DNA of 64,000 bases from positions 62,833-126,832 of the forward strand of contig JBEKSS010000009.1 of the NCBI GenBank assembly GCA_049516875.1. Direction: 5' to 3'. Shown here one piece after another: positions 26,591-64,000 of the stretch. Made by a program: the position numbers and the translations under genes. Each line of letters opens with the position of its first letter. Position 1 is the first letter of the stretch. The stretch comes from Candidatus Bathyarchaeia archaeon (lineage in GTDB: Archaea; Thermoproteota; Bathyarchaeia; Bathyarchaeales; Bathycorpusculaceae). Under the pieces are notes generated by a model, which was given only the letters and a program-made list of their open reading frames with translations, had not been told where the DNA came from and made no database searches.

Positions 26591-26627
26591 CAGGCTAAAA
26601 CGCGGGGGCCTAGAAGAGTATTAGTAA

Positions 26628-41471: not shown

Positions 41472-41530
41472 TTGTTAGTGCGTTAATAAATCGCGCGCGG
41501 TTTGGAAAATGGGTCGCGCATGCTGTGAAA

Positions 41531-45837: not shown

Positions 45838-46000
45838 GCGCGCAGGTGTGTTCCTAAATTCCCTTTTCAACTGTGATAGAGTTCTGTCGCGCCTTCCGAA
45901 CCGTGCCCCCCGTGCCCCAAGACATTTCGCCACCCATAGACGAAGCAAAGCCAGAAGCATAAGCTATCTCGCAAACGAATTTAGAAACAGGCATGCGCGC
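45838..46000. mobile_element. MITE family A, divergent copy 4
   Basis: TA-GCGCGCAGGTGTGTTCCTAAATTC...GAATTTAGAAACAGGCATGCGCGC; unrelated interior. Confidence 0.7.
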
Positions 46001-46115: not shown

Positions 46116-46622
46116 GTGACTGGAGAGCGCAATGACTATTCACATTATACTGGGATTTTGTCAAATCTGGTTGGTGGTTTGTATTTTGCTGCTGGTTTCA
46201 CTTTCACCGCCATAACCCTGCTACTCACTTTTCAGACCCAGACAAGCCTCTTCTTTCAGATCACGCTCTTTCTAATGAATATCCTAGTCGAACTGTCCTA
46301 CTTCTTGGCACAATGGTACACAGTGCATTCAACCCTTTATGCAGCCATTCCGCCCCTCACAGGATTTGCCATGATTGCAAATTACTTGACGTTTTTGGTT
46401 GCAAGTCTGGCGACGATGGTGCCAACGCTTCTTTTCTTTGTTTATGGGTTTGTCTATTTGGGATTAGCATCGGTGATTGCATGGATAGCGATGCGTCTGA
46501 GGGCTTATGCCTACATTGCTTTAGTGGAGAACAGTGCAACGATATCTGTGCCAACTGCTATCATCGGTTTTCATGCTGAGAACGCTCTGCGTTGTGCAAA
46601 TCTTCCTCTTTTCTTTCTTTGA
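46116..46622 (+). CDS. Membrane hypothetical protein (C-terminus uncertain, overlaps abiEii)
   Basis: Four hydrophobic helices; AGGTG RBS. Confidence 0.5.
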   Translation: MTGERNDYSHYTGILSNLVGGLYFAAGFTFTAITLLLTFQTQTSLFFQITLFLMNILVELSYFLAQWYTVHSTLYAAIPPLTGFAMIANYLTFLVASLATMVPTLLFFVYGFVYLGLASVIAWIAMRLRAYAYIALVENSATISVPTAIIGFHAENALRCANLPLFFL

Positions 46623-47556
46623 TTTGTTGAAGTGTCCACAGAACTGCAGGATATTCCGCTAGTTGTTCATGGAATAGTCCAGCGTTGTCAATAATGTTTG
46701 GTTTGAAGATTTTCTCATCGTAGAACTTGTCTATTGCTTCGATTTCACTTTTCTTGATGCTGGCCAGATGCACTTTAGTGAACTTCTGAACTTCTCTTGT
46801 TATTTTGGCAAAATCGTATTGTGAGAGTTTCTCTGTTTGCAGTAGGTTTCTCAGGCTGGAGTCTATTGGAATCTGCGCAGCCAGTTCGGGGTTGATTTCG
46901 TGCATTCTTGGTTTTTTATGGGTTAGACTTTCAACGATTGCACATTTGCGGAAGATGTTGTGGTCGAATTTCATTTTGGTTATTTGATACGTGTCGAAAA
47001 GGTCTCGAGGTGTTGTTCTATAGAGCAGAGTACACCATTTGTTTGCGAACAGTTCTTCTCTCATTGGAGTTCTCGTCTTGAATGTTTCATGTGTTCCTAT
47101 GTGTTTGAAATCTGCTGAGATGTCGGTTTTGAGAATTGGGGTTCGGCGGAGGTATCCTATTTCTATTTTGAAGTTGTCTTCAGAGCCATGAGCATTGACG
47201 TACCTGACAGTGAATCGTGTGAGCGGATAGCTTGCGTTTATGGCGATGTCCGTCTGGTCGTATTCTTGTCTGTAGATTAGATCTTTCAGCCGTTCGTCGA
47301 TTTCCTTTCGTATCTCTCCCCAGTCTGCATTGTTTGTATGTCGGTAGTTGAAGTCGAGGTCTATGGACAATCGCAGTACTTCTGGTGAGTAGATGAATGT
47401 GAGAGCTGTTCCGCCGTAAAGTGATAGGCGGTCTGAAAGGTATTTCACAGCCGAGATGTCCTCTAGCAGATCCGAGATTCGGCATGCCTTTTCTATTTCT
47501 TTGGGGCTGAACCCGTATTGCAGCGTCAACGCATCAAAATCGTATTTCTTCTTCAC
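46561..47556 (-). CDS. abiEii: AbiEii-family nucleotidyltransferase toxin (type IV TA)
   Basis: GGTAL...RLSIDLD, KIEI, K...L..R..PRDLFD. Confidence 0.88.
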   Translation of the reverse strand: MKKKYDFDALTLQYGFSPKEIEKACRISDLLEDISAVKYLSDRLSLYGGTALTFIYSPEVLRLSIDLDFNYRHTNNADWGEIRKEIDERLKDLIYRQEYDQTDIAINASYPLTRFTVRYVNAHGSEDNFKIEIGYLRRTPILKTDISADFKHIGTHETFKTRTPMREELFANKWCTLLYRTTPRDLFDTYQITKMKFDHNIFRKCAIVESLTHKKPRMHEINPELAAQIPIDSSLRNLLQTEKLSQYDFAKITREVQKFTKVHLASIKKSEIEAIDKFYDEKIFKPNIIDNAGLFHEQLAEYPAVLWTLQQIKERKEEDLHNAERSQHENR

Positions 47557-48372
47557 TCAGATGCCTCTCAGTTGTTCCTCGAAGGCTTCTGGAATGTACA
47601 GGTTCCATCTTCTGTTGAGGCTGCCTTTTTTTCCATGGACCAAGTATTGTGGTGGACCTCTGATTTCAATCTCGATTTTGCTCAGCGCAGTGTCGGTAAT
47701 GTGTTCATAGAACGGTGATCTCTCTCTCAAAAGGTCCACGATGAAGCCGATTCGCCTAGGAAGACTCCTCTTCTGTTGCTGAAGGGTTAGGCTAATCAGT
47801 TTTTCAACGTCGAGTCCGTGGAGATTTTCTAGACTTTTTATGCATTCTTCCCATCCTCCGGCATATTGAACTCTGTCGATGCATTCAATGAACGTCCTTT
47901 CTTTGCTACTCACTCTCAAAAGGCTGCTTCCATAGGGTTTCTCTACTACCTGTGATGTCGTGTCTTTGACGAATAATGGTCTGAAGATGAACCGTTTGTA
48001 ACCGAATGGATCGAACCTGTCTTTCGAGTTGACGCATACGTAGGCTTCGTTGAAAGCAGAGTAGGCGCAGCCGTAGTATTCCAAAGCGGTGTGGAAGCCC
48101 AAGTAGTATTCTTTTCTGATTTTGGAGGCGATTAGAAGTTTATCTGGTTCGTACTTTTCTGTTTTTTCAAGCGGAGATAGAACAGCATACAACCCCTTCC
48201 GGATTGCCAGGAGTTTGTGAGCTTCGATCAATCTTTTGACATATTTTCGATAGATGTATTTGCGGTTTGCAGGTCCTTCGATTACGCTTGATGATGCTTG
48301 TACAATTTCGTCAAAGCTTGCTATTTTCATGGGGAGAAGAGCTTTGTAGAGCGCTTCAGTTTTGTTCACCAT
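47557..48372 (-). CDS. abiEi: AbiEi-family antitoxin/transcriptional regulator
   Basis: N-terminal wHTH with IRKGLY, YLGFHTALEYYG, ERTFIECIDR; abuts the toxin. Confidence 0.85.
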   Translation of the reverse strand: MVNKTEALYKALLPMKIASFDEIVQASSSVIEGPANRKYIYRKYVKRLIEAHKLLAIRKGLYAVLSPLEKTEKYEPDKLLIASKIRKEYYLGFHTALEYYGCAYSAFNEAYVCVNSKDRFDPFGYKRFIFRPLFVKDTTSQVVEKPYGSSLLRVSSKERTFIECIDRVQYAGGWEECIKSLENLHGLDVEKLISLTLQQQKRSLPRRIGFIVDLLRERSPFYEHITDTALSKIEIEIRGPPQYLVHGKKGSLNRRWNLYIPEAFEEQLRGI

Positions 48373-48502: not shown

Positions 48503-48822
48503 TTCGTGAAAAGCAAGCGACTACGCACATCTTGGATAGTCAACTATCCAAATATCGCATATTTTGGACAACACTCTAACCGACAAGTCGCGGTTCTATG
48601 TCCCGAATTGCACGCTCCGACCATGTTCTTCGAATTTTCACGATTAACGTGATTTCAGGTTCATTACGTATAAGGAACAAACAATAGTTAACACGCTGAT
48701 AGTAGCGAACTTCTGCACCCTGCCACACTATTTGTTCAGAACATAACACGCCTACAAGGTCAAACCTAACGCGCGCTCAGGCGGCCGCTTCACGTTTCGC
48801 ATCCGGCACTCTCGGCAGCTTA

Positions 48823-49003
48823 GCGCGTATGCGTGTTCCTAAAATGGTCAAAAATGGCCATAATTCCGTTTTTCACATTTCTGCCAGTGCTTAAGACAGT
48901 TACTCAAAGAAATCAAGAACAGACACGAAGCCCAAAGCCGTCCCTAGATCATGAAGGGCGAATAAAAACCATTTTAGGCCAATTTCGGAACAAGCATGCG
49001 CGC
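48823..49003. mobile_element. MITE family A, copy 5
   Basis: Near-identical to 41063-41246; TA on both flanks. Confidence 0.85.
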
Positions 49004-50291: not shown

Positions 50292-53200
50292 ATGTCAAAC
50301 ACATCTAGCGTCGATGCAATCCTGACTGAGGCTAACATAAAAGAAAAAGAGTATAATTGGCTAGGCGCGGCTGAGACTTACGCGAAAGGATTGGACTCAA
50401 TATCAGCACAGAACTTCTCAAGCTCAGGCGATCTTCACGAGCGTTTAGGCTATGCCTTTCGCAAAGCAGCGATGCAGGCCGAAGATGTGAACGAGTTCAA
50501 GAACAGTATGAACAAGGCTGCTGTTCACTATGGTAAGGCTCTTGAGGCTTATGAAAGGATCAGTGACTCTGAGACGGCGAACGCCAAAGGTCTTCGATGT
50601 GATGCTGCCAAAGCTTACGTTGAGCATTGGTTGGCGTCTGACAGTTTTGAAAAGAAGAAATGGTTGGATGAATGTTGGAAGCTCGCAACTGGGAGTATGC
50701 GAACATTCGAAAAGGGAGAGGAACGAAGTGAATTTGTGAAAACATACGTCCAACTTTCAGACGCAGCGATTTTTCTGTTTACTCGCGAACCCGATTTCAA
50801 ATCCCGCGAAAAGGTAATACAAGAGGCAGTGGAGTCAGGCGAGAAGGCAATAGAATTCCTCTCAACTTCGGGAGATGCTTGCCAACTTGCGATGGCTTAC
50901 GCGCGAACCGTTGTTTTTCTAGGAGTTTTCAGCTATAACTTCAGAGACATTAATGAAAGGGAGAAATATCGACAGGAAGGCCTCAACTATTGGGGCAAGG
51001 CCAAGCAGCTTTCTGAAGAAATAGCGATGACCGAGTCTGTGTACCCTGTTTTTGGAGGCCAAGTTTTCTTCGGCTTGGAAGGCGCCGACGAAGCGTTTGA
51101 AAACTGTACGAAAGCATTAGAGTACGGCAGAAAGATGAATGACAAGTTCATTATCGGTTGCGCATTAGATTGGCTCGTCTACCACACTGCCTGGAAGCTT
51201 CCGGGAACCGATGATCCAGTTGAGAAAGAACGCGCCATTGAAAGGTGTCTGAAATATGCAGAGGAATCACTGTGCGAGCTCAGCAAGGTGCCCTTCGTAA
51301 GCCCCCGCGGCGATCTTGCCTGGACCAAATCAATTGAAACCATGCGTCTCCTTCTTCAACATGACGTTGAGACTGATCTGAAGAAAAAAAGAGTCTTAGA
51401 TGAAGAGGCTTTCCAGTGGGGTCTGCGCAATCGAAAAATGTGGGAAGAATCTGGTTATCCGGAAATCATGATGAGTTGGTATGGTGGGGCAGCCATGCTT
51501 CGCCAAAGGCTCGCCAAATTCGAAACAGACCCTGCGGATAGAAAAAAAGGTCTTGAAGAAGCCCTCGCTTACATAAATAAAGCCATAGGAATTCAAGAGG
51601 GACTTGTCCCCCTTCAATACTGGAACATTGGTATCTCGCGAAGTTCGTTGGGAAACGTAGAATCTGAACTCGCTGAAGTGACCGAGGACTCGGAGAAAAA
51701 GAAGGCTTTGCTTAGAGCCGCACTGGCCGACAAGCAGAAAGCCATAGAATTGTGCATCAGAGAATTGACGTACATGACGAAGAAAGGCTCGGGAACCTCT
51801 CTCTTCGCAACCGTAGGAGCACTGCAATATGGATATGCACACGCCCTTGTCCGTTTGTACGAGTTAACGGGCGAAAAGGAGCTTTTGAAAAAAGCGGTAC
51901 AGAGTTATGACGCTTCAACCGAATCCTATCAAAAGCTCAGCTTGATGAGTAGAATAGCGGAGAATTGTTGGAGAAGAGCACAAGTATATGACAAGCTTGG
52001 AGAGCATTTGGCAGCCTCTCAGGATTTTGAGTGCGCAGCACGGAGCTACGCTTCGGCATTAGAGAAGTTCCCACAGCTCAAAGCCTTCTACAATGACCAC
52101 GCCCTGTACATGCAGGCTTGGAGCGAAATTGAAAAAGCAAGATTTCACCATCAGAAACAAGAATATAACCTGGCAGAAGAGCATTTTGACAAAGCCGCCG
52201 GTCTTCACAAATCTTTGAAACGATGGAACTATCTCGCACCAAACTATTCCGCTTGGGCAAAGCTTGACGAAGCAGAAGAACTGAGCAGAAAAGAGAACAG
52301 TGAAGAAGCTCTTCAGGCCTTCGAAACAGCTTCTGCGCTTTTGGAGGAAACCAGTAAGTCTCTGGAGAACCAGTTGCCAACGATCGAGGACGCCGAGGAA
52401 AAAGAGATGGCAGCAGAAATGTTGAAGGCTACAGGCCTGAGACATCAATACTGCGCAGCACGAGTCGCAGTTGAAGAAGCCAAGATCTTTGACAAGAAGG
52501 GAGATCACTTGTCAAGCTCCGAGAAGTACAGTTCGGCAGCTGAAATCCTTGAGGGTATACAGGAGGCTGTAGAAACAGAGCGGGACAAAAAGGAGTTCAA
52601 ACTTATCGCAACACTCTCTCAAGCTTGGGCAAAGATGACGTTGGCTGAAGCCGAGGAATCGCCAGGTTTGTACGCGGAAGCATCTCAGCTCTTTGAGAAG
52701 GCCAAAGAACTGAGCCCTAACGAGAAAGCAAAGACGCTAGCTTTAGGACACAGTCGCTTCTGCAGAGCACTTGAAGCTGGAATGGAATTTTCCGACACGG
52801 CGGACGAAAAACTCCACAATATCGCCGTTCAGCAATTGGAAAGCGCTGCAAAATACTACGTGAAAGCTGGCATTCAGAGCGCTTCGGAATATGCCAAAGC
52901 AACCGAGCTGCTTCTAGACGCTTACTCAAACATCAACAACGCAAAGAAAGAAGCTGACCCTGAAAGAAAAACAAAACTGTTTGCGATGGCCCAAAAAATC
53001 CTACAAACTTCCGCGGGCTCTTTCATGAAAGCTGAACATCCAGAAAAGAGAGAGCAGGTTCTGAGACTCCTTGACAAAGTGAAAGAAGAACAAGAATTGG
53101 CTATGTCCCTCAGTGAGGTATTACACACTCCTGCAATTGTCTCTACAACAACCGCATTCAGTACGCCTACTCCGAATCATGAGAATGCAGTGGGTATTGA

Positions 53201-53606
53201 GAAGTTTGAGAACGCCAACATACAGGCAAACATTATTTCCCGCCAAAAACAGCTAAACGTGGGTGAAAATTTGGACTTAGAGATAGAGCTCGTCAATGCA
53301 GGAAAAGGGCCTGCGCTGTTGATCAAAATCACCGAGCTCATTCCGAAAGGCTTCGAATTGGCTGAAAATCCCGAAGCCTACAGAGTGGAGGACAGCTACT
53401 TGAACATGAAGGGAAAACGAGTTGACCCCTTGAAGACCGTAGAAGTGAAGCTTAAGCTCAAGCCGAAAGTTCAAGGCGAGTTCTCACTCAAACCCACGGT
53501 ACTGTATCTCGACGAAAATGGACAGTACAAGTCAAATCAGCCTGAGCCGCTGACTTTAACGGTCACGGAGCTTGGAATCAAGGGCTGGCTCAAAGGAGAA
53601 AGATGA
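50292..53606 (+). CDS. Large TPR-like helical repeat protein with C-terminal Ig-like domain
   Basis: About 1000 aa of Ala-rich helical repeats; C-terminal L.VGE...LEIELVNAGK...PTVLY. Confidence 0.8.
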   Translation: MSNTSSVDAILTEANIKEKEYNWLGAAETYAKGLDSISAQNFSSSGDLHERLGYAFRKAAMQAEDVNEFKNSMNKAAVHYGKALEAYERISDSETANAKGLRCDAAKAYVEHWLASDSFEKKKWLDECWKLATGSMRTFEKGEERSEFVKTYVQLSDAAIFLFTREPDFKSREKVIQEAVESGEKAIEFLSTSGDACQLAMAYARTVVFLGVFSYNFRDINEREKYRQEGLNYWGKAKQLSEEIAMTESVYPVFGGQVFFGLEGADEAFENCTKALEYGRKMNDKFIIGCALDWLVYHTAWKLPGTDDPVEKERAIERCLKYAEESLCELSKVPFVSPRGDLAWTKSIETMRLLLQHDVETDLKKKRVLDEEAFQWGLRNRKMWEESGYPEIMMSWYGGAAMLRQRLAKFETDPADRKKGLEEALAYINKAIGIQEGLVPLQYWNIGISRSSLGNVESELAEVTEDSEKKKALLRAALADKQKAIELCIRELTYMTKKGSGTSLFATVGALQYGYAHALVRLYELTGEKELLKKAVQSYDASTESYQKLSLMSRIAENCWRRAQVYDKLGEHLAASQDFECAARSYASALEKFPQLKAFYNDHALYMQAWSEIEKARFHHQKQEYNLAEEHFDKAAGLHKSLKRWNYLAPNYSAWAKLDEAEELSRKENSEEALQAFETASALLEETSKSLENQLPTIEDAEEKEMAAEMLKATGLRHQYCAARVAVEEAKIFDKKGDHLSSSEKYSSAAEILEGIQEAVETERDKKEFKLIATLSQAWAKMTLAEAEESPGLYAEASQLFEKAKELSPNEKAKTLALGHSRFCRALEAGMEFSDTADEKLHNIAVQQLESAAKYYVKAGIQSASEYAKATELLLDAYSNINNAKKEADPERKTKLFAMAQKILQTSAGSFMKAEHPEKREQVLRLLDKVKEEQELAMSLSEVLHTPAIVSTTTAFSTPTPNHENAVGIEKFENANIQANIISRQKQLNVGENLDLEIELVNAGKGPALLIKITELIPKGFELAENPEAYRVEDSYLNMKGKRVDPLKTVEVKLKLKPKVQGEFSLKPTVLYLDENGQYKSNQPEPLTLTVTELGIKGWLKGER

Positions 53607-53742
53607 CCGAAAACTAGTTTTGCGGAATCTGAGGGCGCGCTATTCCTTCACACTCTGCGATCGCGCTAAGCGCGCGCGTGATAAACAACACTTTTAAGTT
53701 ATTTGATGCTAATTAAGAAAGCAATTCCGAGTTGTTGAAACC

Positions 53743-54243
53743 ATGAAAATGAGAATGATAAAACTACGCCCTGAATTCCTCATAGAAACATTGCAGGGAA
53801 AAGCATCTTTCACTTCCAACCTGCCAGACAATATTGAACTATTAGATATTAAGTACGACTTTTTTTCCAAGCAAGTATCAGCAATCATAAGAAGCGACAG
53901 TTTTGAAGACGTTGTAGAATCCTATCCACCTCCAGAATTCAATGTCATCTATACGACAAACCCCAAAGCCGAATCTCAGCCCACAACAAACTCCAAACCT
54001 GAATTTAAGCCCACAGAGAAAACGCCGGTTCAGCCAAGTCAAGACACAAGCGCAATAGAAAAAGAATTCAGCCCAGAGCAGCGCAATTTGCTGAGTTTCA
54101 CAGTAGACGGAGAATACGTCACAATAAAGCCAAACCAATACTTGAAGAATGAGTGGGATGAAATTAACGATACTGTGAGAAGTTTAGGTGGTAAATGGAC
54201 GAAAGGCGACAACTTCAGCTATTGGGCAATTCGACGAACTTAG
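53743..54243 (+). CDS. Hypothetical protein
   Basis: 166-aa ORF with upstream TATA-like element; C-terminal LGGKW....SYW domain. Confidence 0.65.
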   Translation: MKMRMIKLRPEFLIETLQGKASFTSNLPDNIELLDIKYDFFSKQVSAIIRSDSFEDVVESYPPPEFNVIYTTNPKAESQPTTNSKPEFKPTEKTPVQPSQDTSAIEKEFSPEQRNLLSFTVDGEYVTIKPNQYLKNEWDEINDTVRSLGGKWTKGDNFSYWAIRRT

Positions 54244-54615
54244 CAAGCATAAAGCAAAGTACACAAGACTAGTTTCTTCAGCTGACCAACTAGCCTTTTT
54301 TTCATCATTCATAGAACTTACGAGATATCCTTTTACCCCTCTCAACGCAACCGCAACTATTTTTTATCTTTCGAATGTTTTGCTGGAAGCGAAACCTGCT
54401 TTTTCTCTTTTCTTTTCAGTTCTTTCTCTCGCTGTAATTTTTTATGCTGCTCTAAACCTGCAGCTTTCTTTTCTTTTCTTGACAAAAGCTCATCAACCTT
54501 AGCAGGCAATAGAAGCATTACGTTACTTCCTGCTATGGCCTGAACCCACTATTCAGCCCTGAAAGTAACTGTTTTTTCCACCACAGCTCCCGTCGTCGTC
54601 AAGGTTGGTTGGTTT

Positions 54616-54636
54616 GGATATAACTTTACCCCCCCC
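54616..54636 (+). repeat. Family B palindromic core adjoining the left end of the Cas1 element
   Basis: GGTTGGTTTGGATATAACTTTACCCCCCCCAA. Confidence 0.7.
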
Positions 54637-54712
54637 AAGAAAACCTGAGCTTGATTCGTGGAGCTCTGAGCTTGGGGGTGACGCGTGCTCGCGATAGAAG
54701 AGCAGAAGTCAG

Positions 54713-54848
54713 CTTGGTATGCGAGCACGCTGTTTCTGCTCGTGGTAACATCTATAGTGCAACTGGTACGTAGTAGTACCGTAAGAACGCTAAGAACGGT
54801 AAGTACGTATATAGGGTACTGCCGAAGGCTAGCTGAAGGCTGAAAAGA
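54713..54848 (+). repeat. Left terminal inverted repeat (visible matched part)
   Basis: 54713-54752 is the exact reverse complement of 63961-64000; 54751-54778 is the exact reverse complement of 63879-63906; TAAGAAC tandem units and AGGCTGAAAAGA are shared further inward. Confidence 0.92.
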
Positions 54849-54860
54849 AGGGTGAAGTGG

Positions 54861-55067
54861 CTAGTCTTTTCTTACGATAAATATGACAAGAACAACGTAC
54901 ATGGCAATGAACAAACCTAAGACTATAGTGCCGCCAAGTGCTTGGTCTTGAGGAATTCCTTTTGGATAAATATAGGCTTCGTAGCAATCCGTCCAGTAGT
55001 TGCCTAAAATACCTAACACCACACCCAACGAGAAAAGCAAGATTTCTTTTAGGCTGTTTTTAGGCAT
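54861..55067 (-). CDS. Small two-TM membrane protein
   Basis: 68 aa with two hydrophobic helices; inside the element. Confidence 0.55.
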   Translation of the reverse strand: MPKNSLKEILLFSLGVVLGILGNYWTDCYEAYIYPKGIPQDQALGGTIVLGLFIAMYVVLVIFIVRKD

Positions 55068-55249
55068 ATTGAGTCAGGAGAACCTAATGCTGAATTACGT
55101 ATTATCTCTTACTATTGAAACGCAAGATGAGAAAAACAAAGGTCTAATATTTTTCTATTTCTAGTCATAATTCAGAAACGGAGCCTTCCTAAGGCACGGA
55201 ATAAGGTTAAAGTAGTCCAATAGCCTTTATTAGCTAGGAGGAGGCTAGA

Positions 55250-56275
55250 ATGAAGAGTAAAACCACGAAGATAGCCCTAGAAGGCTTCGGATCGTACTTG
55301 GGAATGCAAAGAGGCTCTTTCGTAGTCCGAGACAAGGACGGAAAAGAAGAGAGGTATCCATTGTTTGAGAGTGAGATAGGAGAAGTGCGTATCAGGAGCG
55401 GTAATACCGTAAGTGCAGGAGCGTTAGCAAGTATCGGGTTCTGGCAGATAGATTGTCTGCTCCTGAGCGGTAGAGGTCGTCCGATAGCGATCCTCAGGTC
55501 TCTAGATGACGACAGTCACGTTTCGACTAGAATAGCCCAGTACGAGTCCTTAAAGAACGGCAAGTTTTCGGATATAGCCAAGCAATTCGTCTTATCAAAA
55601 ATAGAAGGACAGAATGAGCTTCTGAAGAAGTACGGTCTTAGACGATTAGACTATTCTCACATCGAGAAGATCAAGAGTATTCAGGAGAGCGATATTCGAG
55701 CGTTAAGAGTCAAGCTTACAAATATAGAAAGCCATTGTTCAAGGCTCTATTTCAACCAAGTGTTCGGAATGTTCTCAGAGTTGTTGAGACCTAGCGGTAG
55801 AAAAGCATTCAAAGCCTACGATGGAATAAACAACCTCTTCAACTTGGCATACGAGGTTCTCTCTTGGAAGGTTCATCTTGCTCTCCTTAAAGCGAGACTA
55901 GAACCATTTCTAGGCTACTTGCACAGTCTGGCTTGGAGTAAGCCTTCTCTTGTGTGCGATTTCAAAGAGCTTTATCGGTACTTGATGGACGACTTCGTTA
56001 TCCAGTACGCTAAGAAACTGGGGCCCAGAGACTTTATCTTGAAGACAGAAGAATATGCGAACCGCAAGGGAAAGCGAGAATACATCAACGACCTTAAGAC
56101 TAGAGGCTTTATGAAAATGCTTGATGACTGCTTTCTTTCTGAAGTTGAGGTTCCTAGAGTTAGAATAGGCAAGAAACAAGAACTGGAGACGCTGATAAAC
56201 GAAGAGGCTCTGCTGTTCGCTAGCTATCTGAGGAATGAAAAACAGACGTGGATTCCTCGGACAGTGGAACTATGA
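55250..56275 (+). CDS. cas1: Solo Cas1 integrase (putative casposase)
   Basis: G.YLG, TRIAQY, SKIEGQ, IESHCSRLYF (Glu), NNLFNLAY, PFLGYLH (His), SLVCDFKELYR (Asp/Glu); GGAGG RBS; no cas2 or array nearby. Confidence 0.92.
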   Translation: MKSKTTKIALEGFGSYLGMQRGSFVVRDKDGKEERYPLFESEIGEVRIRSGNTVSAGALASIGFWQIDCLLLSGRGRPIAILRSLDDDSHVSTRIAQYESLKNGKFSDIAKQFVLSKIEGQNELLKKYGLRRLDYSHIEKIKSIQESDIRALRVKLTNIESHCSRLYFNQVFGMFSELLRPSGRKAFKAYDGINNLFNLAYEVLSWKVHLALLKARLEPFLGYLHSLAWSKPSLVCDFKELYRYLMDDFVIQYAKKLGPRDFILKTEEYANRKGKREYINDLKTRGFMKMLDDCFLSEVEVPRVRIGKKQELETLINEEALLFASYLRNEKQTWIPRTVEL

Positions 56276-56613
56276 GGCTAGTTCCTTCCAGAAAAGTCTG
56301 TGAGAAGTTCTGGATTACCTACGACTTTAAAGGTTGCCAGAAGGCTGTAGACTTTCTAACTCGGCACTACGGAATAAGAAGGATGAAGATCGTACTAGAC
56401 GGCAAGAAAGTGCACAAGAAGAGTTGGTTAGCCTGTTACTACTACGACCAGCATACCGCTTACTTTAAGAAGAGAGGCTTGACCAAACGTTACGTTCTGC
56501 ATGAACTTTACCATCACATCGTAAACGCGAAAGGTCTTGAAACATCTTCAAGAGAAGAAGAAAAACAAGCTAGCGCGTATTCTTGCAATTTTGCAAGAAA
56601 GGCTAGAGGCTAA
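56272..56613 (+). CDS. Small zincin-like (HExxH) metallopeptidase, translationally coupled to cas1
   Basis: VLHELYHH...EEEKQA; ATGA overlap with the cas1 stop. Confidence 0.7.
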   Translation: MRLVPSRKVCEKFWITYDFKGCQKAVDFLTRHYGIRRMKIVLDGKKVHKKSWLACYYYDQHTAYFKKRGLTKRYVLHELYHHIVNAKGLETSSREEEKQASAYSCNFARKARG

Positions 56614-56712
56614 GGAGAACAAGAATTAGAGACGCTGATAAACGAGCGCGCGCGCACGCTTTCTGGAAAATTTTAAATTGAGTTTCGCACCTAATGGGAA
56701 GTGGGTGGAAGT

Positions 56713-57195
56713 ATGGTCGAGTTGCCCAACTGGGAGAAAATAGTCGTGCCTCAACGTCATGGCACAGGATGCGTGCCAACTGGTTATGAATGGATGTTGC
56801 GGTATTTAGGCACCAAAGGCGTAAACTTCGATACTTTTCAGGAGGATTTCGACCTTCAATACTCTGGCGAAGGTAAGAACAATTTTCAAGATGTGGCACG
56901 AAAGGTGAAAACAACATATCCCGATGTTAACATCAGTATCAAATCCTTCGATATTGGCAAGGAGAAGCTCGAATTTATTGCCACCTTAGTCAGCAATGCT
57001 GTTCCTTGTTTGTTATCAGTGGCAAAAACACCAGTGGGAGGAGACTGGCATATTGTTCCAGTCGTCTCAATCGATGACACATCGGTCAAGGTTATTTGGA
57101 CAGGCAATCAAACTACGATGTTTGCGAAAACCGAAATAATCCATCGGCACGACAATTGGCCAGGCGGAAAAGATATCGCTTGGATTGAACGATGA
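56713..57195 (+). CDS. Papain-fold (C39-like) cysteine peptidase
   Basis: PQ.....C motif (QRHGTGC) and WHIVPVV.ID. Confidence 0.6.
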   Translation: MVELPNWEKIVVPQRHGTGCVPTGYEWMLRYLGTKGVNFDTFQEDFDLQYSGEGKNNFQDVARKVKTTYPDVNISIKSFDIGKEKLEFIATLVSNAVPCLLSVAKTPVGGDWHIVPVVSIDDTSVKVIWTGNQTTMFAKTEIIHRHDNWPGGKDIAWIER

Positions 57196-57252
57196 GATGC
57201 GAAACAAAAAAAGAGAGCGCGCGCGCCATATCTCTCTCGCGCGCTTCTTATT

Positions 57253-57942
57253 TCACCCTTTCTTGCTCATTATTTGCTTGTAAAGCTCTTTTGTAATTAT
57301 CCCGTTTTCGTAAGCCAGTTTGGCGTTCTCAGGAAGATGTTCCGAAAATGCCTTTGACAGGTTTTCAAGTACAGGAATCACGGAATCTTGAGCTTGTTTC
57401 AATATTTTTTTAGGGACATCTACGATAGTTCGACACACAGGCTCTATTTTCTTTTTATACCCTTCAGCGTATTCGAGCCAGTACTTGGCATCCTTACGCT
57501 TCATGTCAGATGGAGACAACCATCTTCCCTTTCGATAGTCAACATATAGACCTTGCAGTCTTAGGTTCCATATCTCTCCAGCAAGGGAATCGACATCTCT
57601 CTCCATTTCCTCGAAGTCTTTGACATCTAGAGGTCTATCGGGTTTCTGAGGTCCTTTTTCTATTGCCCTTCCAATGAACTCCATAATCTGCACACCCATA
57701 AACGCGTCAAGCTTTGCGCTATGCTGATTCACACGGTTAAGCTCGTCAGGTTTCGAAGACTCGATTCTGGACAGAGCATACATGAAGGCTTTGCTTGTTT
57801 CCTCAATTGCAGAATAAGCTAGGAATACTGAGTGCCCATAACTCCTTCGACGAAACAATATTTCGGCATCTTCGATAAGCTTATTGACGTTATCAAAACA
57901 CAACTCTACTCCTTTCTTCAACTTACTCTTAGGGACTTCCAT
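57253..57942 (-). CDS. abiV: AbiV-family (HEPN) abortive infection protein
   Basis: N...LIEDAEIL....SYG.S.FLA..AIEE..K, H..K, R..GLYVD......SP. Confidence 0.8.
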   Translation of the reverse strand: MEVPKSKLKKGVELCFDNVNKLIEDAEILFRRRSYGHSVFLAYSAIEETSKAFMYALSRIESSKPDELNRVNQHSAKLDAFMGVQIMEFIGRAIEKGPQKPDRPLDVKDFEEMERDVDSLAGEIWNLRLQGLYVDYRKGRWLSPSDMKRKDAKYWLEYAEGYKKKIEPVCRTIVDVPKKILKQAQDSVIPVLENLSKAFSEHLPENAKLAYENGIITKELYKQIMSKKG

Positions 57943-58141
57943 AGCGATTATTCCCCGAAGTTATTGGTGAAACTATCCATAAAAGACTTCGCGCGCTGAG
58001 GACTATTGTCTGAGAAAAGACCGTGAAAGACAAAGGACCAGATTCACTTTAACCTCAGACTCTCTCTATTCCTCTGGAATGTTGTATTGACAAACTCTTT
58101 TTAACCTTTCATAACAGCCGCCTATTTTGTGGCGAACAAGA

Positions 58142-58327
58142 ATGGCGAACCCTTTGTCCGATTGTTGCTTGACAAGACTCTGTGACATGTGCGGCAAATA
58201 CATTCAGGGAGCAAACTACCATTGCCCAAAATGCGATATTTGCATTTGCTTCGGTTGTGGAGTGAGAATGCAGAGCAAAGAGAATTATCCGCTTAAATGC
58301 CCAATGTGCGACGAGAAACTTCAATAG
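58142..58327 (+). CDS. Small Cys-rich zinc-finger protein
   Basis: CDMC, CPKC, CFGC, CPMC. Confidence 0.65.
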   Translation: MANPLSDCCLTRLCDMCGKYIQGANYHCPKCDICICFGCGVRMQSKENYPLKCPMCDEKLQ

Positions 58328-58359
58328 CGCGCGCTTGGAGACTGGCTGTTCACATCCGT

Positions 58360-59388
58360 TTAACCTTTGCGTGGAAAGAGGTAAGCCACGACCGCAACTA
58401 CAACACTCACAATCAAGGCAATGTCTTTCCAGTGTTCGTCTAGGAATTTCCTTGCGGATTTCTTGGAGGGCAATGCGATTGCTTGGCGGTAGAAACTTCT
58501 CTTGGACTCTTGAATGGACTCATCTATGAGGGGTCTGTTCTCTGTGGTGGCAACTTCAAGGCCAGTGCTGGCTACAAACCACTTCAGCAAAGTCTCGCCA
58601 ATTGTCTTGATTTCCTTAGGATCCGGTCTCATTGGAATATCATTTACTACCGAATGCATGACCAAGACTCCATCTGTTCTACCATCTGCTGGTCGGAGGA
58701 GGAATTGCAGGACAGATTTCTTGTTTCCGTAGGTTTTGACAAAGTATAGGCTATTTGACGTTTTTCTGCTTAGTGTTAGGTTAAAATCTTCTTCGAGCTT
58801 CTTCAGTTGCTCCATTACTATGTTCACATCAGCATTTGCAGTAAAACTCATCGCAGAACCGTTCAGCACAAGTCGGTACCCACACTTTTTGACAATTGGA
58901 ATAGCGAGGGCAACAGAAAATGCGACAAGGAAGCCTAAGAAAACTGAAACTCCTAGTGCGGAGCTTATCCTCTCATTGCTTTGATAAGTTGTAAATGCTG
59001 TGTGCGTTGGGTCGAAGTAAAGAATCATGGTTTCAAAGAACATGAAAGAAAAAACGTAAATGCGCAAGCCATCGATTGTAAAGCGCGGGGCTCTAATCCA
59101 CAAAGCTGGAGGAAAAGCGGAGATGAGCGGAATGACAAAAAGCGTAGATATGCCAGTTTCTCCAAAGGACAGCGAAGTTGAGCTGAAGATGTATGCAAGG
59201 AAATAAATTAGGCACGCAATCGCCAGTCCATATGCTAAGCCAAAACTGATAGAAAATAAGCGATGGTGCGAGAAAAGCCAGTTTGACTTTTGCAATTGCA
59301 GTTTTTCCTCTAGATTAATTTTCTCTTCTTTAAGAATCTTCACTTCCTCTTTGATGCTGTCCATGTCGTCTTTATTCTTATCTTTCAA
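58360..59388 (-). CDS. Membrane protein (coiled coil + about 4 TM + soluble domain + C-terminal TM)
   Basis: Hydrophobicity pattern; long ORF. Confidence 0.7.
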   Translation of the reverse strand: MKDKNKDDMDSIKEEVKILKEEKINLEEKLQLQKSNWLFSHHRLFSISFGLAYGLAIACLIYFLAYIFSSTSLSFGETGISTLFVIPLISAFPPALWIRAPRFTIDGLRIYVFSFMFFETMILYFDPTHTAFTTYQSNERISSALGVSVFLGFLVAFSVALAIPIVKKCGYRLVLNGSAMSFTANADVNIVMEQLKKLEEDFNLTLSRKTSNSLYFVKTYGNKKSVLQFLLRPADGRTDGVLVMHSVVNDIPMRPDPKEIKTIGETLLKWFVASTGLEVATTENRPLIDESIQESKRSFYRQAIALPSKKSARKFLDEHWKDIALIVSVVVAVVAYLFPRKG

Positions 59389-59545
59389 ATTTTATCACTT
59401 CTGATTCTTGTTTCTGTCAGGAACGATACTATCTTGCTGGAATTGCGCTGAATAAACCTATTTTGCAAACGCCCTTCATATCTGTAGTTTGAATCTTGCT
59501 TATTTAGACTTGTGCTGGCACATGCTGAATAATTGCTAGCGCGCG

Positions 59546-59656
59546 CTTATTCGAATCCAAAAGCGTCGATTAATGTGACGGTCGGGAGAAAGTTATCGGC
59601 ATACCAGCCGTCGTTAAGGCTCTTGGTCGTGCCAAGGGTGATATTGCCGAAGTCCA
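59546..59656 (-). pseudogene. Start-less 3' gene fragment between two GCGCGCGC sites
   Basis: Reads LDFGNITLGTTKSLNDGWYADNFLPTVTLIDAFGFE*. Confidence 0.4.
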
Positions 59657-59694
59657 GCGCGCGCCAGTATTCATTAAACGTTAGAGTGCGCGCA

Positions 59695-60261
59695 CTATTC
59701 GTGGTTACTTTGATTCTGTGATTCCTTCTCTTTCTCCTTCTTGATCTTTCGAATCATGGCTCTCTTTTCAAAGAACCTTTCAATTCTTGAATTTTTTAAG
59801 TAATTAGAAATCGCACGACCATCGCTCTTTGCTTCCGCCATAACTGGACGGATTTCCTCGCGTAGTTCGTCTGGTACATCCTCAAGAGTAAATTCCTCTT
59901 TTTTATCAGGCACTGCTACGCCCATTATTGTTCTTGTTGGTGGCTCAGGTTTTGGCTGAATCGCTTTCACAGCGTTCCGTATTTTTTCAGTCGTGCTCTT
60001 CTTAGGCTGATGCTTCTTATCTTCCATTTCTTGACGCACCTCGTCTTCCAGAATCTCTTTTCTTGACCTATGCTTGTTTCTCTCTTCCTGTTCGTACTTC
60101 TCTTTCAAGTCAAGCATTTCTCTGGAAGCTCGCACTCCGCTACTCGCTCTCGGCAATTTCGCTTTACGGTATTGTTGGCTTTCGTCGTCAATTATGAAAG
60201 ATTTTCCAATCTGGCGGGAAGTTCCATGCGTTCGCTTTCTCCATTTCCGTTTATGAGACAT
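59695..60261 (-). CDS. Basic/charged hypothetical protein (element core operon)
   Basis: Co-directional overlapping operon; ends at GCGCGC 59688. Confidence 0.6.
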   Translation of the reverse strand: MSHKRKWRKRTHGTSRQIGKSFIIDDESQQYRKAKLPRASSGVRASREMLDLKEKYEQEERNKHRSRKEILEDEVRQEMEDKKHQPKKSTTEKIRNAVKAIQPKPEPPTRTIMGVAVPDKKEEFTLEDVPDELREEIRPVMAEAKSDGRAISNYLKNSRIERFFEKRAMIRKIKKEKEKESQNQSNHE

Positions 60262-60493
60262 ACTTCATGTTCTCCTTGTTCTTTATTCTCGTGCGTTCTA
60301 GCCTACGCCTTTCTTTATGCATTTTATCGTCCGTTTCAAGTTGAGCAAAAGCGACCTTAATGTTAGGTGGTTCATTCTCTTTCTCTTGCAAATGTCCGAC
60401 TTCACGAGATAACACAACCAGCACTTTATCCACTCTTTTTGAATCTCGTTCTAGCTGAGCTAGACGCTCCGCTACAGTCTTTCGTTTGTGCAT
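60251..60493 (-). CDS. Small coiled-coil hypothetical protein
   Basis: GGAG RBS; overlaps its neighbour. Confidence 0.5.
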   Translation of the reverse strand: MHKRKTVAERLAQLERDSKRVDKVLVVLSREVGHLQEKENEPPNIKVAFAQLETDDKMHKERRRLERTRIKNKENMKYVS

Positions 60494-60512
60494 TTAGAAA
60501 ACACTCCTTTGT

Positions 60513-60773
60513 CTAGGTGATTACGTTTACCACTTTTACGTCGCCAACTATAGCGAGAACTCTGCGTATTTCTTCTTGCCAGTAAGCACGAAAGCCTACG
60601 AAATTAGTGTCAAGCTCAGGAATACGTCTAACCTTTATCTTTATGATTGCAAAAACAGCAACCATTTCCGTAGGTGGTGGTTGGTTATGTTCGGTATTCC
60701 GAGATTGCAATTCGTTCAGTTCGACTCGTTCACCTTTCTTTTCATTTTCAGCAACCATTTTACGCACCTCCTT
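60513..60773 (-). CDS. Hypothetical protein (start uncertain, probably near 60760)
   Basis: GGAGG upstream of MVAENE...; part of the operon. Confidence 0.45.
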   Translation of the reverse strand, partial: KEVRKMVAENEKKGERVELNELQSRNTEHNQPPPTEMVAVFAIIKIKVRRIPELDTNFVGFRAYWQEEIRRVLAIVGDVKVVNVIT

Positions 60774-61215
60774 CCGATCCAAGTCTCCGATTATCCGCCC
60801 AAAATGTAGCATATTCCCAACAGCCTTCACTATCGCCATTAGGAATGTACTTGTAAAAGACTGGATAGCTCTTTTTGCGGTTCTTCAGGTTAATCCTTTC
60901 CTCTATCGTTCCGTACTTCCGCATCCAAACGAATTTCTTGTTCACGAGTCCAGCTTTTAGAACGTTTTCCAGATGGCAGAGAATCTCTTGCCAAGAGAGA
61001 TGCTTTCCGAATATGCTTGTAAAATTGGCTAGACGGTTTCCATCTAGGTCAAGTTGATAAGGCTCGCTACTTTTCATTATCAGAACGCTCCCGATATTGT
61101 AAAATCTTGAGTATTTTTTGCAATATTCTACAAGATAGGACGGTAACGCCAAGTCACTATCCAACATGAGGAATCTGTCTGTGCTCCAGCCTACAATCGG
61201 ATATCCTTCGTTCAT
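60760..61215 (-). CDS. Possible small AEP (primase-polymerase)-like protein
   Basis: hhhDhD (FLMLDSD), KSS...N.hhF and distal R.. K; the expected His is absent. Confidence 0.4.
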   Translation of the reverse strand: MNEGYPIVGWSTDRFLMLDSDLALPSYLVEYCKKYSRFYNIGSVLIMKSSEPYQLDLDGNRLANFTSIFGKHLSWQEILCHLENVLKAGLVNKKFVWMRKYGTIEERINLKNRKKSYPVFYKYIPNGDSEGCWEYATFWADNRRLGSEGGA

Positions 61216-61228
61216 TCACCCCACCCCC

Positions 61229-61570
61229 TCAAGAAGGTACGCTAACATCATAATTCTCTACTCTTCTGATCCTAACCCAATCAGTTCCTCCAAGAAGAAC
61301 TGCAAAGTCTGGATAAGCCTCGCCTTTTACGTGGACAGGCATTTGATGATCTTCTTTCATTTTTGAACAGACTATTCTTATGTATGTAGCAAGAAGCTTA
61401 CGGTCACGCCACAGCTTTTCACTAATCTTCACTTTGTACTCGAAGCCTCTTAATCCACCGTTTGCATCTCTGTATCTTCCGTAGAACCTAACGTACCTTC
61501 GAGAAGTCTTGACTTTAATTCTCCTGCGGAGAGGAAGTGGTTTAAACTCTGGAATGTTTCTTCCTCGCAT
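61229..61570 (-). CDS. Basic hypothetical protein
   Basis: Arg/Lys-rich; GGGGGT RBS. Confidence 0.55.
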   Translation of the reverse strand: MRGRNIPEFKPLPLRRRIKVKTSRRYVRFYGRYRDANGGLRGFEYKVKISEKLWRDRKLLATYIRIVCSKMKEDHQMPVHVKGEAYPDFAVLLGGTDWVRIRRVENYDVSVPS

Positions 61571-61940
61571 ACTCAACCCCCCCACTCAAAGCTTCTAACA
61601 GCTTTGTCTGACGTTTCTCTTCATGGAGAATTTCGTAAAGGACTTCCACTACGTCCTTATCCTTAGCAGAAGCCATATCCTCTTCTAGAGCCTTCTTCAC
61701 AGGCTTGGAGAATTTCTGTTTAAGTTGCAATACTCCTGTTCTTCTATTAGGATCAGCCTCATCATCTAACTCTTGTAATTTGGCTAGAATTTCTCTACGT
61801 TCTTCTGGAGACTTTGTATGCTCTAGTCTCATACGAAGATCATGTCTCTTATGACAACGAAGCATTATCACTCTACTACGTTCTTTCTGCTCTTTTTCAG
61901 CTTCACTATGATGAAGCGGAATACTATCTGGTAAGCTCAT
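61542..61940 (-). CDS. Coiled-coil hypothetical protein
   Basis: GGAGTGA RBS; part of the operon. Confidence 0.55.
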   Translation of the reverse strand: MSLPDSIPLHHSEAEKEQKERSRVIMLRCHKRHDLRMRLEHTKSPEERREILAKLQELDDEADPNRRTGVLQLKQKFSKPVKKALEEDMASAKDKDVVEVLYEILHEEKRQTKLLEALSGGVEYARKKHSRV

Positions 61941-61946
61941 TTTTCA

Positions 61947-62186
61947 TCACTCCTTTTTGTTCTTTCTCGAAATATTCAAAACAGTGCGTAGACCCATAGC
62001 TTTGTTGATGTCAGCGAGCAAGTATTCGCTTATTTCTACTATCACTTTTCTTCCAAGCTTATCACATCCAATCCTCTTCTTGGCAGTTATAGTAACCCAG
62101 TTGCAATTGCTAATCGACTCTTCCTCTTCCTTTTCTTCTGGTGGGTCAACTTTCACTATTTTGTATGATGCTCCATTTATTCGCAT
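61947..62186 (-). CDS. Small hypothetical protein (possible AbrB-like beta fold)
   Basis: GAGGTG RBS before MRINGASY; ITAKKRIG..KLGRKV. Confidence 0.45.
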   Translation of the reverse strand: MRINGASYKIVKVDPPEEKEEEESISNCNWVTITAKKRIGCDKLGRKVIVEISEYLLADINKAMGLRTVLNISRKNKKE

Positions 62187-62266
62187 GTTTATCACCTCAC
62201 CTTTTTTTCTTTCCATTCCTTCAGAGCTTCCGCTATCACAACTCGCTTTTTCACAAGTGTTCACCT

Positions 62267-63283
62267 TCAAATTTTAAATGGGATTTTATAGTCAGGATTA
62301 AGCTTGTACTTAAACCAACGGTGAGGAGTTTTCCGTATCTCTATTATAGCACCAATTTTTATCAACCTTGAGATACTCTCCCTTACAGTTCCTTCCCAAT
62401 ATCTTCCATGCCATTCCTTCATCATTTCTGAAACGTATATTGATGGTTCTCTCAACTCCTGCCTACTGAAAAGAACACGTATGATGTCTTTATCAATCTC
62501 ACATAACTGAATCTCTTTCTTCTTATACGTGTGTTCAAATATGAATTTCATTGCATTTCCGTTATCTTCAAGTTTTGCAGTAAAAGGCTCTATGTCCAAA
62601 GGAATCCTCCTTTGCACAGGTCGGATATACAATCTCTCAAGATTGGACTTAGCTTTCGATCCTAATACAAAGTAAGTATCAACCTGTTGAAGTATCGCGG
62701 AACTTCCCATGCTCAAATTTCCAATGTTCTCAGTTGACATCATTTCGTCAACGCCTACTATAGACTTTGACGATACGTGATGAAGAAGAATTACCGTCCT
62801 TCCGTTACGTATGACTTGCTCTTTAAATTTCGACAGTACGTTCATATCTTCTGTTGCATTTGGATTCAAGTCTCCGCATACTCTATGCAAGCAATCTATG
62901 ATTATGACTTTAGCCTTTTCACACTTGTTTATCGCACGGACAAGAGAACCGTCGTCAAGATAACACCGCTTAGTCGGTTCAATGTATAGGTTGCATATTT
63001 TCGGTATCTTAATCAACCCTTTGTCTAAAGCCTTGAGCCTTACGATCAAGGTTCTGTCTGGAGTGTCTTGGTCTATGAGCAATACGTTTGACAATAGAGT
63101 TTTCCTTCCCATAAAGTTAGAGCCGCGAATAATGCACTCTGCAAGATACTCTGCCAAGAAAGACTTTCCAACACCTTCTTTTGAAATAAATGCAGTAAGA
63201 GAATCCGCTGGTATTATATCCTTTACCAGAAATCTCTGCGATTTGATAGGCTGATTATGATCAAATGATTCCAAATTTGTCAC
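62267..63283 (-). CDS. AAA_25 / RepA-type (RecA-fold) helicase-like ATPase with C-terminal wHTH
   Basis: Walker A SKEGVGKS, LLIDQD, Walker B IIIDC, LLHH..K, GSSA....VD. Confidence 0.8.
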   Translation of the reverse strand: MTNLESFDHNQPIKSQRFLVKDIIPADSLTAFISKEGVGKSFLAEYLAECIIRGSNFMGRKTLLSNVLLIDQDTPDRTLIVRLKALDKGLIKIPKICNLYIEPTKRCYLDDGSLVRAINKCEKAKVIIIDCLHRVCGDLNPNATEDMNVLSKFKEQVIRNGRTVILLHHVSSKSIVGVDEMMSTENIGNLSMGSSAILQQVDTYFVLGSKAKSNLERLYIRPVQRRIPLDIEPFTAKLEDNGNAMKFIFEHTYKKKEIQLCEIDKDIIRVLFSRQELREPSIYVSEMMKEWHGRYWEGTVRESISRLIKIGAIIEIRKTPHRWFKYKLNPDYKIPFKI

Positions 63284-63336
63284 TACCTTATTCTTTTGTG
63301 AAGAGACTTAAGTCAAGTATTACAAAATCTGCAATA

Positions 63337-63525
63337 TTATCTGATGTCAATACCGTTCCGCTTTACGTCTTTTGAGACTACGTCCATAATGTAGCTAGAC
63401 CGAGACAAGAATCCTCTTCTCTTCTTGACTCTATCTACAGCCCTCAATTCTCTAAGGCTCATAGCCACACTAATCGGTATCTTTATGTCTACTGGATTTT
63501 CCTCACGAATGAACCGTTTTTTCAT
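63337..63525 (-). CDS. Ribbon-helix-helix (CopG-like) DNA-binding protein
   Basis: ISVAMS..EL..VD.......SRSSYI; GGAGG RBS; first gene of the operon. Confidence 0.7.
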   Translation of the reverse strand: MKKRFIREENPVDIKIPISVAMSLRELRAVDRVKKRRGFLSRSSYIMDVVSKDVKRNGIDIR

Positions 63526-63805
63526 TTTTCAAAACCTCCGAAAAATTCTCCCTGCGATTCAGGGTCTCCCCCTTAGAAACTTTTAGGCTCGGCTTCTTTC
63601 TCGCCGAGCGAGTCTCTATACTACAGAGGGGGATACTAACTAATAAGCCCTTCCGATATACCTAGAGATATACTCCATTAAACTCGTTTTTGGCACTTGC
63701 GTAGGAAAATGCCTTCTAAGACTCGCCAAGAACGCTAAGGAATAAAAAACTTCGACCTTGAAAGCCGTTTTGAAGCCTCTTTTCCGAAATCCAGCCTTTT
63801 CCTAT

Positions 63806-64000
63806 CTTTTCAGCCTACCCTCCTACTCTATATAGATCCAACATTACCTTAGGGTTCTTAGGGTTCTTAGCTCCCGACTACTACTACGTACCAGTTGCAC
63901 TATAGAGTACTGATCATAGTGCTAAAGCTTACTGCTAAGCCTTCTCTACGCTGCTGCTCGGATGTTACCACGAGCAGAAACAGCGTGCTCGCATACCAAG
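63806..64000 (-). repeat. Right terminal inverted repeat (truncated by window end)
   Basis: Exact 40-bp and 28-bp inverted matches to the left end, separated by an extra 54 bp (63907-63960). Confidence 0.9.

Follow-up and report, generated by a model that had tools for sequence, protein, structure and literature searches.

Short (GC)n palindromes at the boundaries of gene-sized DNA blocks in the cargo of a Cas1 mobile element and in the genomes of its Bathyarchaeia host lineage

Investigation of the final 64 kb of contig C9 of a Candidatus Bathyarchaeia genome (hereafter the window, meaning the whole stretch of 64,000 nucleotides (nt) analyzed; the genome, G000, comprises 2.43 Mb in 20 contigs) revealed a Cas1 mobile element of 9.29 kb (window 54712-64000) whose middle third, the cargo (56646-59694), is a mosaic of five pieces of about gene size that meet at (GC)3-5 palindromes. 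Runs of this kind, defined as (GC)3 or longer with one extra flanking C or G permitted, belong to the host lineage, one Bathyarchaeia genus and one sister genus, and not to the element, and comparison of the related genomes supports the reading that they mark the ends of DNA blocks found in different neighborhoods in different genomes. The cargo and the genus-wide pattern together point to an undescribed way of gene shuffling. No account of GCGCGC or GCGCGCGC in archaeal intergenic or insertion settings was found in the literature, supplements excluded, and searches on casposons or Cas1 in Bathyarchaeia, limited in the same way, returned nothing on (GC)n joints.

Joints and genes of the cargo

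The runs and genes of the cargo are the following (aa, amino acids; positions are those of the window):

56646-56655, (GC)5 run, left edge of the cargo
56701-57195, + strand, cargo block 1, candidate papain-like (C39_2/C70-like) peptidase of 164 aa
57217-57226 and 57238-57244, (GC)5 and CGCGCGC runs, 11 nt apart, hairpin possible (-13.3 kcal/mol, z -3.1)
57253-57942, - strand, cargo block 2, AbiV-family HEPN protein of 229 aa
57990-57996, CGCGCGC run
58014-58327, + strand, cargo block 3, repeated promoter-like module (about 58040-58108) and 66-aa zinc-finger gene (58127-58327)
58327-58334, (GC)4 run
58360-59388, - strand, cargo block 4, membrane protein of 342 aa without family
59539-59546, (GC)4 run directly beyond the TAA stop of the minus-strand gene piece
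59547-59693, - strand, start-less 48-aa C-terminal gene piece, cut at the (GC)3 run 59688-59693
59657-59664, (GC)4 run inside the gene piece, translated R-A-L
59688-59693, (GC)3 run

All eight runs lie where a sequence-only reading of the window had placed them, one start being corrected by a single base (59539, not 59538), and the alternating gene orientation which that reading described agrees with the open reading frame (ORF) calls (+ - + - -). GCGCGC is absent from 53678-56646 and beyond 59693, leaving both core blocks of the element free of runs, as had also been claimed. The cargo holds 8 runs in 3.05 kb, where the genome rate predicts 1.2 (Poisson P 4e-5) and the rate in the host portion of the window predicts 3.0 (P 0.012), and the element core has 0 in 6.2 kb vs. 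2.5 (P 0.08, genome rate) or 6.2 (P 0.002, local rate) expected; that all eight should land in the cargo by length alone has a probability of 1.3e-4. Since GCGCGC is enriched throughout the window (89 matches vs. 10.9 expected) and the genome, the runs are not special to the element.

Several cargo pieces end on a run. To the left of the cargo lies a 28-nt duplicate of Cas1 codons, the homology of which stops exactly at the first (GC)5 run (56646). The zinc-finger block belongs to a multi-copy family in the genus; the homology of four other copies ends at 58327-58335, a fragmentary copy (L033) has runs on both sides, and in the window the TAG stop of the gene overlaps the run at 58327. The 48-aa gene piece, which has no paralog in G000, is truncated exactly at the run 59688-59693. 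The earlier claim that the cargo was loaded in the same way as the host island is partly supported: by the delimiter, which is the same and lies at block ends in the host, by these three cargo ends and by the peat copy of AbiV described below. The mechanism itself may be shared.

The metagenome contig L075 (9346 nt) matches 54751-64000 letter for letter, both of its ends coinciding with repeat tips, and in the peat metagenome run X5 a contig of 7524 nt covers 56385-63908 with zero differences; because both match, the cargo order is not an assembly accident of G000. The peat data (runs X5-X8) are assembled contigs, not reads. A 3.9-kb contig of run X8 matches the AbiV gene alone (57259-57937, 55 differences, 92% identical). 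Among the contigs of the four peat runs compared with 53000-64000, none had an alternative joint across a cargo run, with rare variants invisible in such data and X8 coverage partial.

Regarding the proteins encoded, the AbiV identity proposed earlier is confirmed by PF18728 (E 5.9e-22, 78.9 bits vs. a cut-off of 27.1) and by the PADLOC AbiV model (1.4e-14), and an R-x5-H motif was seen by eye. The 164-aa protein gave no match in Pfam and PADLOC searches; its assignment follows from the ESM Atlas (feature score 0.97, TM 0.81 to a PF13529 cluster, a lead and not an alignment), with Cys and His residues seen by eye. The 66-aa protein has sub-threshold Pfam matches only, its cysteine pattern being judged by eye. 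For the 342-aa membrane protein neither a Pfam family nor a usable ESM Atlas match was found, and a marginal PADLOC match to CARF_TM (E 0.0017) was obtained. The suggestion that the genes next to AbiV are candidate new defense genes therefore holds weakly: AbiV is real, but the other cargo proteins have no PADLOC family beyond this marginal match. Run-delimited host islands carry mixed accessory genes, including GrpB, a methyltransferase, regulators and an AbiE pair. A tRNA search of the window and an Rfam search of 53000-64000 gave no match. The conserved module of about 70 nt at 58040-58108, which has TATA-like features and is also found upstream of unrelated genes in G000:C1, G003 and G004, looks like a portable promoter.

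Distribution of the runs in the host lineage

The genomes compared comprise five of one Bathyarchaeia genus (G000-G004), one of a sister genus (G021) and 35 other relatives. In G000, which contains 965 runs, no hexamer is more strongly over-represented than GCGCGC. Counted against crude ORFs covering 82% of the genome, 639 of the 965 runs lie outside ORFs, and a run is present in 422 of 1916 intergenic gaps, in every gene orientation. Some contigs carry as few as 0.16 runs per kb and C9, C14 and C15 as many as 0.8, the greatest concentration being in variable islands. Non-extended (GC)n tracts number 129986, 5841, 577, 332, 53 and 3 for n = 1-6, a hump at n = 4 with near-absence beyond n = 5 that indicates a preference for (GC)4; the base before the run is A in 55% of cases and the base after it is T in 52%, giving the canonical form A(GC)4T. 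The five genomes of the genus have 98, 29, 87, 69 and 115 copies of AGCGCGCGCT and G021 has 63, whereas 34 of the 35 other relatives have 0-9 copies and the remaining one, G023, has 11; a reversed-pattern control gave 0-7 copies.

Coincidence of block ends with runs

Block ends were taken from high-scoring segment pairs of at least 88% identity to congeners and counted when at most 5 nt from a run (4 nt for match ends in the comparison of G000 with itself); the controls are positions shifted by only 25-60 nt and mostly still intergenic. Compared with the four congeners, the window is a mosaic in which pieces of 88-96% identity map to many different contigs. Eight of its 19 block ends fell at a run, ten shift controls giving 0, 0, 0, 0, 0, 2, 0, 0, 0 and 0. 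Similarly, 4 of 19 ends did so in a region of C14 (controls 0-1 per shift) and 7 of 21 in a region of C15 (0-2 per shift), so that the three regions sum to 19 of 59 ends, each shift yielding 0-3. When G000 was compared with itself, 157 of 3713 match ends lay at a run (controls 37-54), and after removal of the termini of miniature inverted-repeat transposable elements (MITEs) the count was 85 vs. 29-44 in controls.

Individual junctions show the same coincidence. Runs are found at both ends of the window blocks 23301-23948, 33624-36767 and 41503-42040, and G004 has a run on either side of the gene at 53669-54278. An empty and a filled state of one locus are provided by G004:C16, which reads ccaaa-GCGCC-tgttc, and the window, which reads ccaaa-(GC)3, then 11.3 kb (15932-27252), then (GC)4-attcgg, both flanks being homologous. 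At a tRNA gene and two other anchors the DNA beyond the run, or beyond a decayed run, differs between genomes, and at some junctions a degraded version, for instance GCGTGC, stands in the other genome. For 14 shared blocks the flanks gave no adjacent matches in G000, and no further empty sites were readable there; these blocks accordingly sit in unrelated neighborhoods.

A regulatory or structural intergenic signal, i.e., a protein-binding site or a terminator hairpin that meets block ends only by sharing their intergenic location, could explain why the motif is intergenic in all gene orientations and why paired runs between convergent genes form a strong hairpin. It is nevertheless very unlikely, as the coincidence is lost on shifting the ends by 25-60 nt, which mostly leaves them intergenic, the density is 0.8 per kb in variable islands vs. 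0.16 on conserved contigs, orthologous copies decay, and the motif is scarce (0-9 copies in 34 of 35, 11 in G023) in relatives outside the genus and G021.

A second alternative regards the runs as ends or excision scars of one family of transposons, which would target TA and have inverted repeats starting with GCGCGC, the cassettes being DNA caught between old insertions or carried as passengers. Three MITE families of 184, 163 and about 300 bp, whose inverted-repeat ends begin with GCGCGC, are shared with congeners, and no transposase for them was found in G000. Their copies are located at:

1891-2104, 41063-41246, 42504-42684 and 48815-48998
45838-46000
G000:C15:17603-17904

In keeping with such an origin, at least three MITE families end in GCGCGC with TA mostly on both flanks and copies 94-100% alike, TA flanks solo runs at about 20% per side, TA(GC)4TA peaks at n = 4, and one pair of MITE ends 1970 bp apart encloses small ORFs. 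On the other hand, only about 54 of 1926 run flanks resemble a MITE repeat, the other 1872 scoring like the control, and just 36 of 965 runs have TA on both sides. None of the 65 MITE-repeat-like ends in G000 encloses a transposase; nor do the end pairs of that genome. G000 lacks a DDE_3 match, the IS630-like element of G004 has no GCGCGC ends, and homology blocks ending at runs would be left unexplained. An origin as transposon scars thus appears quite improbable, but the MITE families show that something in the lineage handles GCGCGC ends. The 1970-bp pair (G000:C1:76833-78803), around several small ORFs and transposase-free, may be a passenger-carrying non-autonomous element.

A break-and-rejoin explanation and the search for an enzyme

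The explanation we prefer, and to which we give an even chance, is that the runs are joints left by a break-and-rejoin process of the host lineage. DNA would break at or beside a (GC)n tract and be rejoined to another piece ending in (GC)n. Because the tracts are mutually homologous and each is its own reverse complement, joining could occur in either orientation and in 2-nt registers, and such registers would give run lengths of 6, 8 and 10. An insertion would leave a run on both sides, and frequent exchange would therefore increase the number of motif copies locally. Once the Cas1 element had arrived in the lineage, the same host process may have built or remodeled its cargo, and a dedicated recombinase would not be needed. 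Breaks at (GC)n followed by joining through short self-complementary homology fit best with the two-step lengths, the orientation-free joining and the decaying orthologs.

Several observations weigh against this explanation. Only about a third of the high-identity ends (19/59) lie on a run, breakpoints elsewhere including 46581, 48505 and 31168, and MITE termini supply about half of the end signal within the genome. Several junctions have a run in one genome only, so the motif was not always there beforehand; the congeners are related, and the counts are therefore not independent events; and a single clean pair of empty and filled sites was found. Three cargo genes (the peptidase candidate, AbiV and the membrane protein) offer no comparison at all, as no homolog was found in G001-G004. 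No nuclease or recombinase was identified, and the Ku and LigD end-joining genes of the window do not track the motif: the search for Ku (PF02735) gave no match in G003 and G021, both rich in the motif, but did so in G010, G020 and G040, which are poor in it.

Enzyme candidates were compared with the motif by presence or absence across 41 genomes. Neither the IS630-type DDE_3 family (PF13358), of which a single element without GCGCGC ends is present in G004, nor the Y1 transposase (PF01797), nor Cas1 tracks the motif. The C5 methylase family PF00145 had no match above the cut-off in the genus, and a BssHII-like C5 restriction system is therefore not supported.

A further alternative is a dedicated site-specific cassette system, in which a recombinase recognizing A(GC)4T would excise and insert cassettes in an integron-like manner at a site of 10-12 bp. 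Such a system would account for the defined preferred form, (GC)4 with A/T flanks, for the sharp restriction of the motif to the lineage, for the runs on either side of inserted blocks and the short stretch of GC at the empty locus, for the reuse of one anchor with different neighbors, and for stop codons that directly abut a run. Run lengths of 6-10 with odd forms and the decay of orthologous sites (GCGTGC) are, however, unexpected for a selected crossover site. Contig C9 has no tyrosine recombinase (0 of the 10 PF00589 matches of G000), Cas1, Y1 transposase, IS630-type DDE and C5 methylase do not track the motif, and four solo runs examined fold no better than shuffles as single strands, the pair at 57217/57238 alone folding. 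We consider such a cassette system unlikely. A broader proposal, that the lineage possesses a previously undescribed gene-shuffling system using the (GC)4 palindrome of 10-12 bp as a universal joint for cutting, inverting and inserting, in islands and mobile elements alike, with a dedicated enzyme and as a functional archaeal counterpart of integrons that uses a minimal site, is doubtful, though somewhat less so.

If the break-and-rejoin explanation is true, reusable (GC)n joints would account for the gene-by-gene mosaic seen in the accessory genome of a peat archaeon that is abundant and uncultivated, and for the way in which mobile elements there acquire defense genes such as AbiV. In practical terms, (GC)n could serve as a simple marker of recently exchanged genes in genomes of this genus, and A(GC)4T offers a concrete substrate for finding the nuclease or recombinase responsible.

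The Cas1 element and its relatives

Outside the cargo, the element consists of:

54712-54857, left terminal inverted repeat
54864-55067, - strand, small hydrophobic ORF of 68 aa with a sub-threshold Pfam match only
55250-56275, + strand, Cas1-family gene, 341 aa (PF01867, E 6.7e-37), without cas2 or CRISPR alongside
56248-56613, + strand, ORF of 121 aa without family, 3' of Cas1
56618-56645, + strand, 28-nt duplicate (93%) of Cas1 codons 56175-56202
59695-63525, - strand, core block of nine ORFs, including a 338-aa AAA_25 helicase-like protein (62267-63283), the others without family
63796-64000, right terminal inverted repeat, which reaches the contig end

The arms of the inverted repeats pair exactly over 40 nt (54713-54752 with 63961-64000) and 28 nt (54751-54778 with 63879-63906), and at 81% in a third arm (54837-54857 with 63796-63816), the two repeats lying 9.2 kb from each other. 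Matches of the Cas1 protein among PDB sequences include CRISPR Cas1 proteins and 6opm, and E, H and D/E motifs that look catalytic were recognized by visual inspection only. DNA matches across the Cas1 3' end and the 121-aa ORF were found in G008 and G004. The 338-aa AAA_25 protein resembles the helicase parts of phage primase-helicases, and a PDB sequence search with it returned nothing. No polymerase family was detected among the element proteins with Pfam and PHROGs, and since the largest ORF of the element has 342 aa, a family B polymerase is absent. A 151-aa core protein was suspected by eye of being a small primase; its single-sequence model has a mean pLDDT of 35.9, too low for use.

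Regarding the element ends, the contig stops at the right tip, neither a target-site duplication nor a right flank was found in G000, and 12-20-mers of the left flank occur nowhere else in that genome. The left inverted repeat of L075 holds a 54-nt piece (at window 54751-54752) that is missing from the window copy and makes the L075 ends more symmetrical, reflecting either a deletion or an assembly difference. Host homology to G002:C4 stops at 54612, 99 nt short of the repeat tip. This is the end of a repeated unit of about 95 nt with a terminal 18-nt near-palindrome, copies of which are located at 54523-54612, 25030-25064 (reverse), G000:C8:3184-3278 and in G002:C4; the unit adjoins several block junctions as well as the left end of the element, and the 99 nt that separate the unit from the repeat tip (54613-54711) have no placeable match.

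Searches of genome and metagenome contigs for related elements with other cargo yielded the identical L075, one distant relative and one fragment, and a search of viral contigs with the helicase yielded no relative. The distant relative (L037 / L076; Cas1 48%, helicase 46%) shares only those two genes with the element. In L037 they are divergent and 4.8 kb apart, with no (GC)n run in 16.7 kb, and the L037 and L076 contigs both end within the Cas1 3' region. Seven Cas1 loci of relatives have only Cas1 in common with the element, and G004:C43 likewise shares just the Cas1 gene, at 88% identity. Other Cas1 genes of motif-rich genomes also lie within run-delimited arrays, with a run 5 nt past the Cas1 stop codon in G004:C1, and a Cas1 locus of G023, a motif-poor genome, shows a single run over 20 kb. 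G000 contains seven or more fragments of Cas1 genes, 3' ends for the most part, dispersed over contigs C1, C6, C7, C8, C12 and C15, and the abundant peat strain (X5-X7) has a Cas1 remnant that lacks about 900 nt internally (window 55264-56177), at a depth of 128-1418 vs. 5-9 for the intact element.

It could be supposed that Cas1 itself inserts gene-sized DNA at (GC)n, with a copy of the run left on each side, much as the CRISPR repeat is copied when a new spacer is added, since runs stand directly before or after several Cas1 genes and Cas1 3' fragments, insertions have runs on both sides, and Cas1 fragments are scattered in motif-rich genomes. Yet G008, G012 and G030 have full-length Cas1 homologs (45-54% identity) and 0 copies of the motif, motif-rich G001 and G002 hold Cas1 fragments only, the related element L037 has no run in its 16.7 kb, and known casposases duplicate 14-15 bp at specific targets. 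We regard this as extremely improbable, and Cas1 is probably not responsible for the joints.

Other features of the window

A complete archaeal end-joining operon is encoded on the minus strand at 27317-31111, comprising DUF72, a 466-aa protein with LigD ligase and phosphoesterase domains, Ku and the LigD primase-polymerase; Ku was found in 6 of the 41 related genomes. An AbiEii toxin and AbiEi antitoxin pair (46561-48372, minus strand) forms a two-gene block between the MITE ending at 46000 and a run at 48770.

Comparison with known systems

Similarly to repetitive extragenic palindromes (REPs) and the mosaics built from them (BIMEs), the runs are short GC-rich intergenic palindromes that number roughly a hundred or more per genome. 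They are shorter than REPs, however, and no Y1 transposase of the kind found in REP/BIME-RAYT systems was detected in G000, G003 and G021; coincidence with block ends is not known as a feature of REP elements. Alternating (GC)n, whether as Z-DNA-prone or as short palindromic tracts, is associated with recombination and instability and with rearrangement joints of variable length. The present case differs in that a preferred 10-nt form occurs lineage-wide at gene boundaries and not sporadically. MITEs of the Stowaway/IS630 type resemble the 163-300-bp repeat families of G000, which have inverted-repeat ends and mostly TA on both flanks, but in the cargo blocks inverted repetition goes no further than the run itself, none of the cargo runs has TA on each flank, and no matching transposase was found.

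The likeness to integrons, and to clusters of attC sites lacking integrases (CALINs), lies in mostly single-gene units, each with a palindromic site, that also occur in other contexts, in arrays situated in variable genome regions. The delimiter here has 6-10 bp and varies in length, whereas attC is a folded palindrome of 55-140 bp; several cargo gaps are only 32-57 nt and the solo sites do not fold. Cargo orientation is mixed, whereas integron cassettes mostly face one way, contig C9 has no IntI-type tyrosine recombinase (although a CALIN does not require one), and the host here is an archaeon.

The element as a whole resembles casposons in having a Cas1-family gene within long terminal inverted repeats and variable cargo. 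A thaumarchaeal casposon is also reported to carry a HEPN nuclease as cargo (PMC6563490). The element differs in lacking a family B polymerase, in place of which it has a replication-like module with the AAA_25 helicase, and in the length of its Cas1 (341 aa vs. 431 aa for the casposase chain 6opm). It is an unusual relative of the casposons that combines Cas1 and inverted repeats with a helicase module replacing the polymerase.

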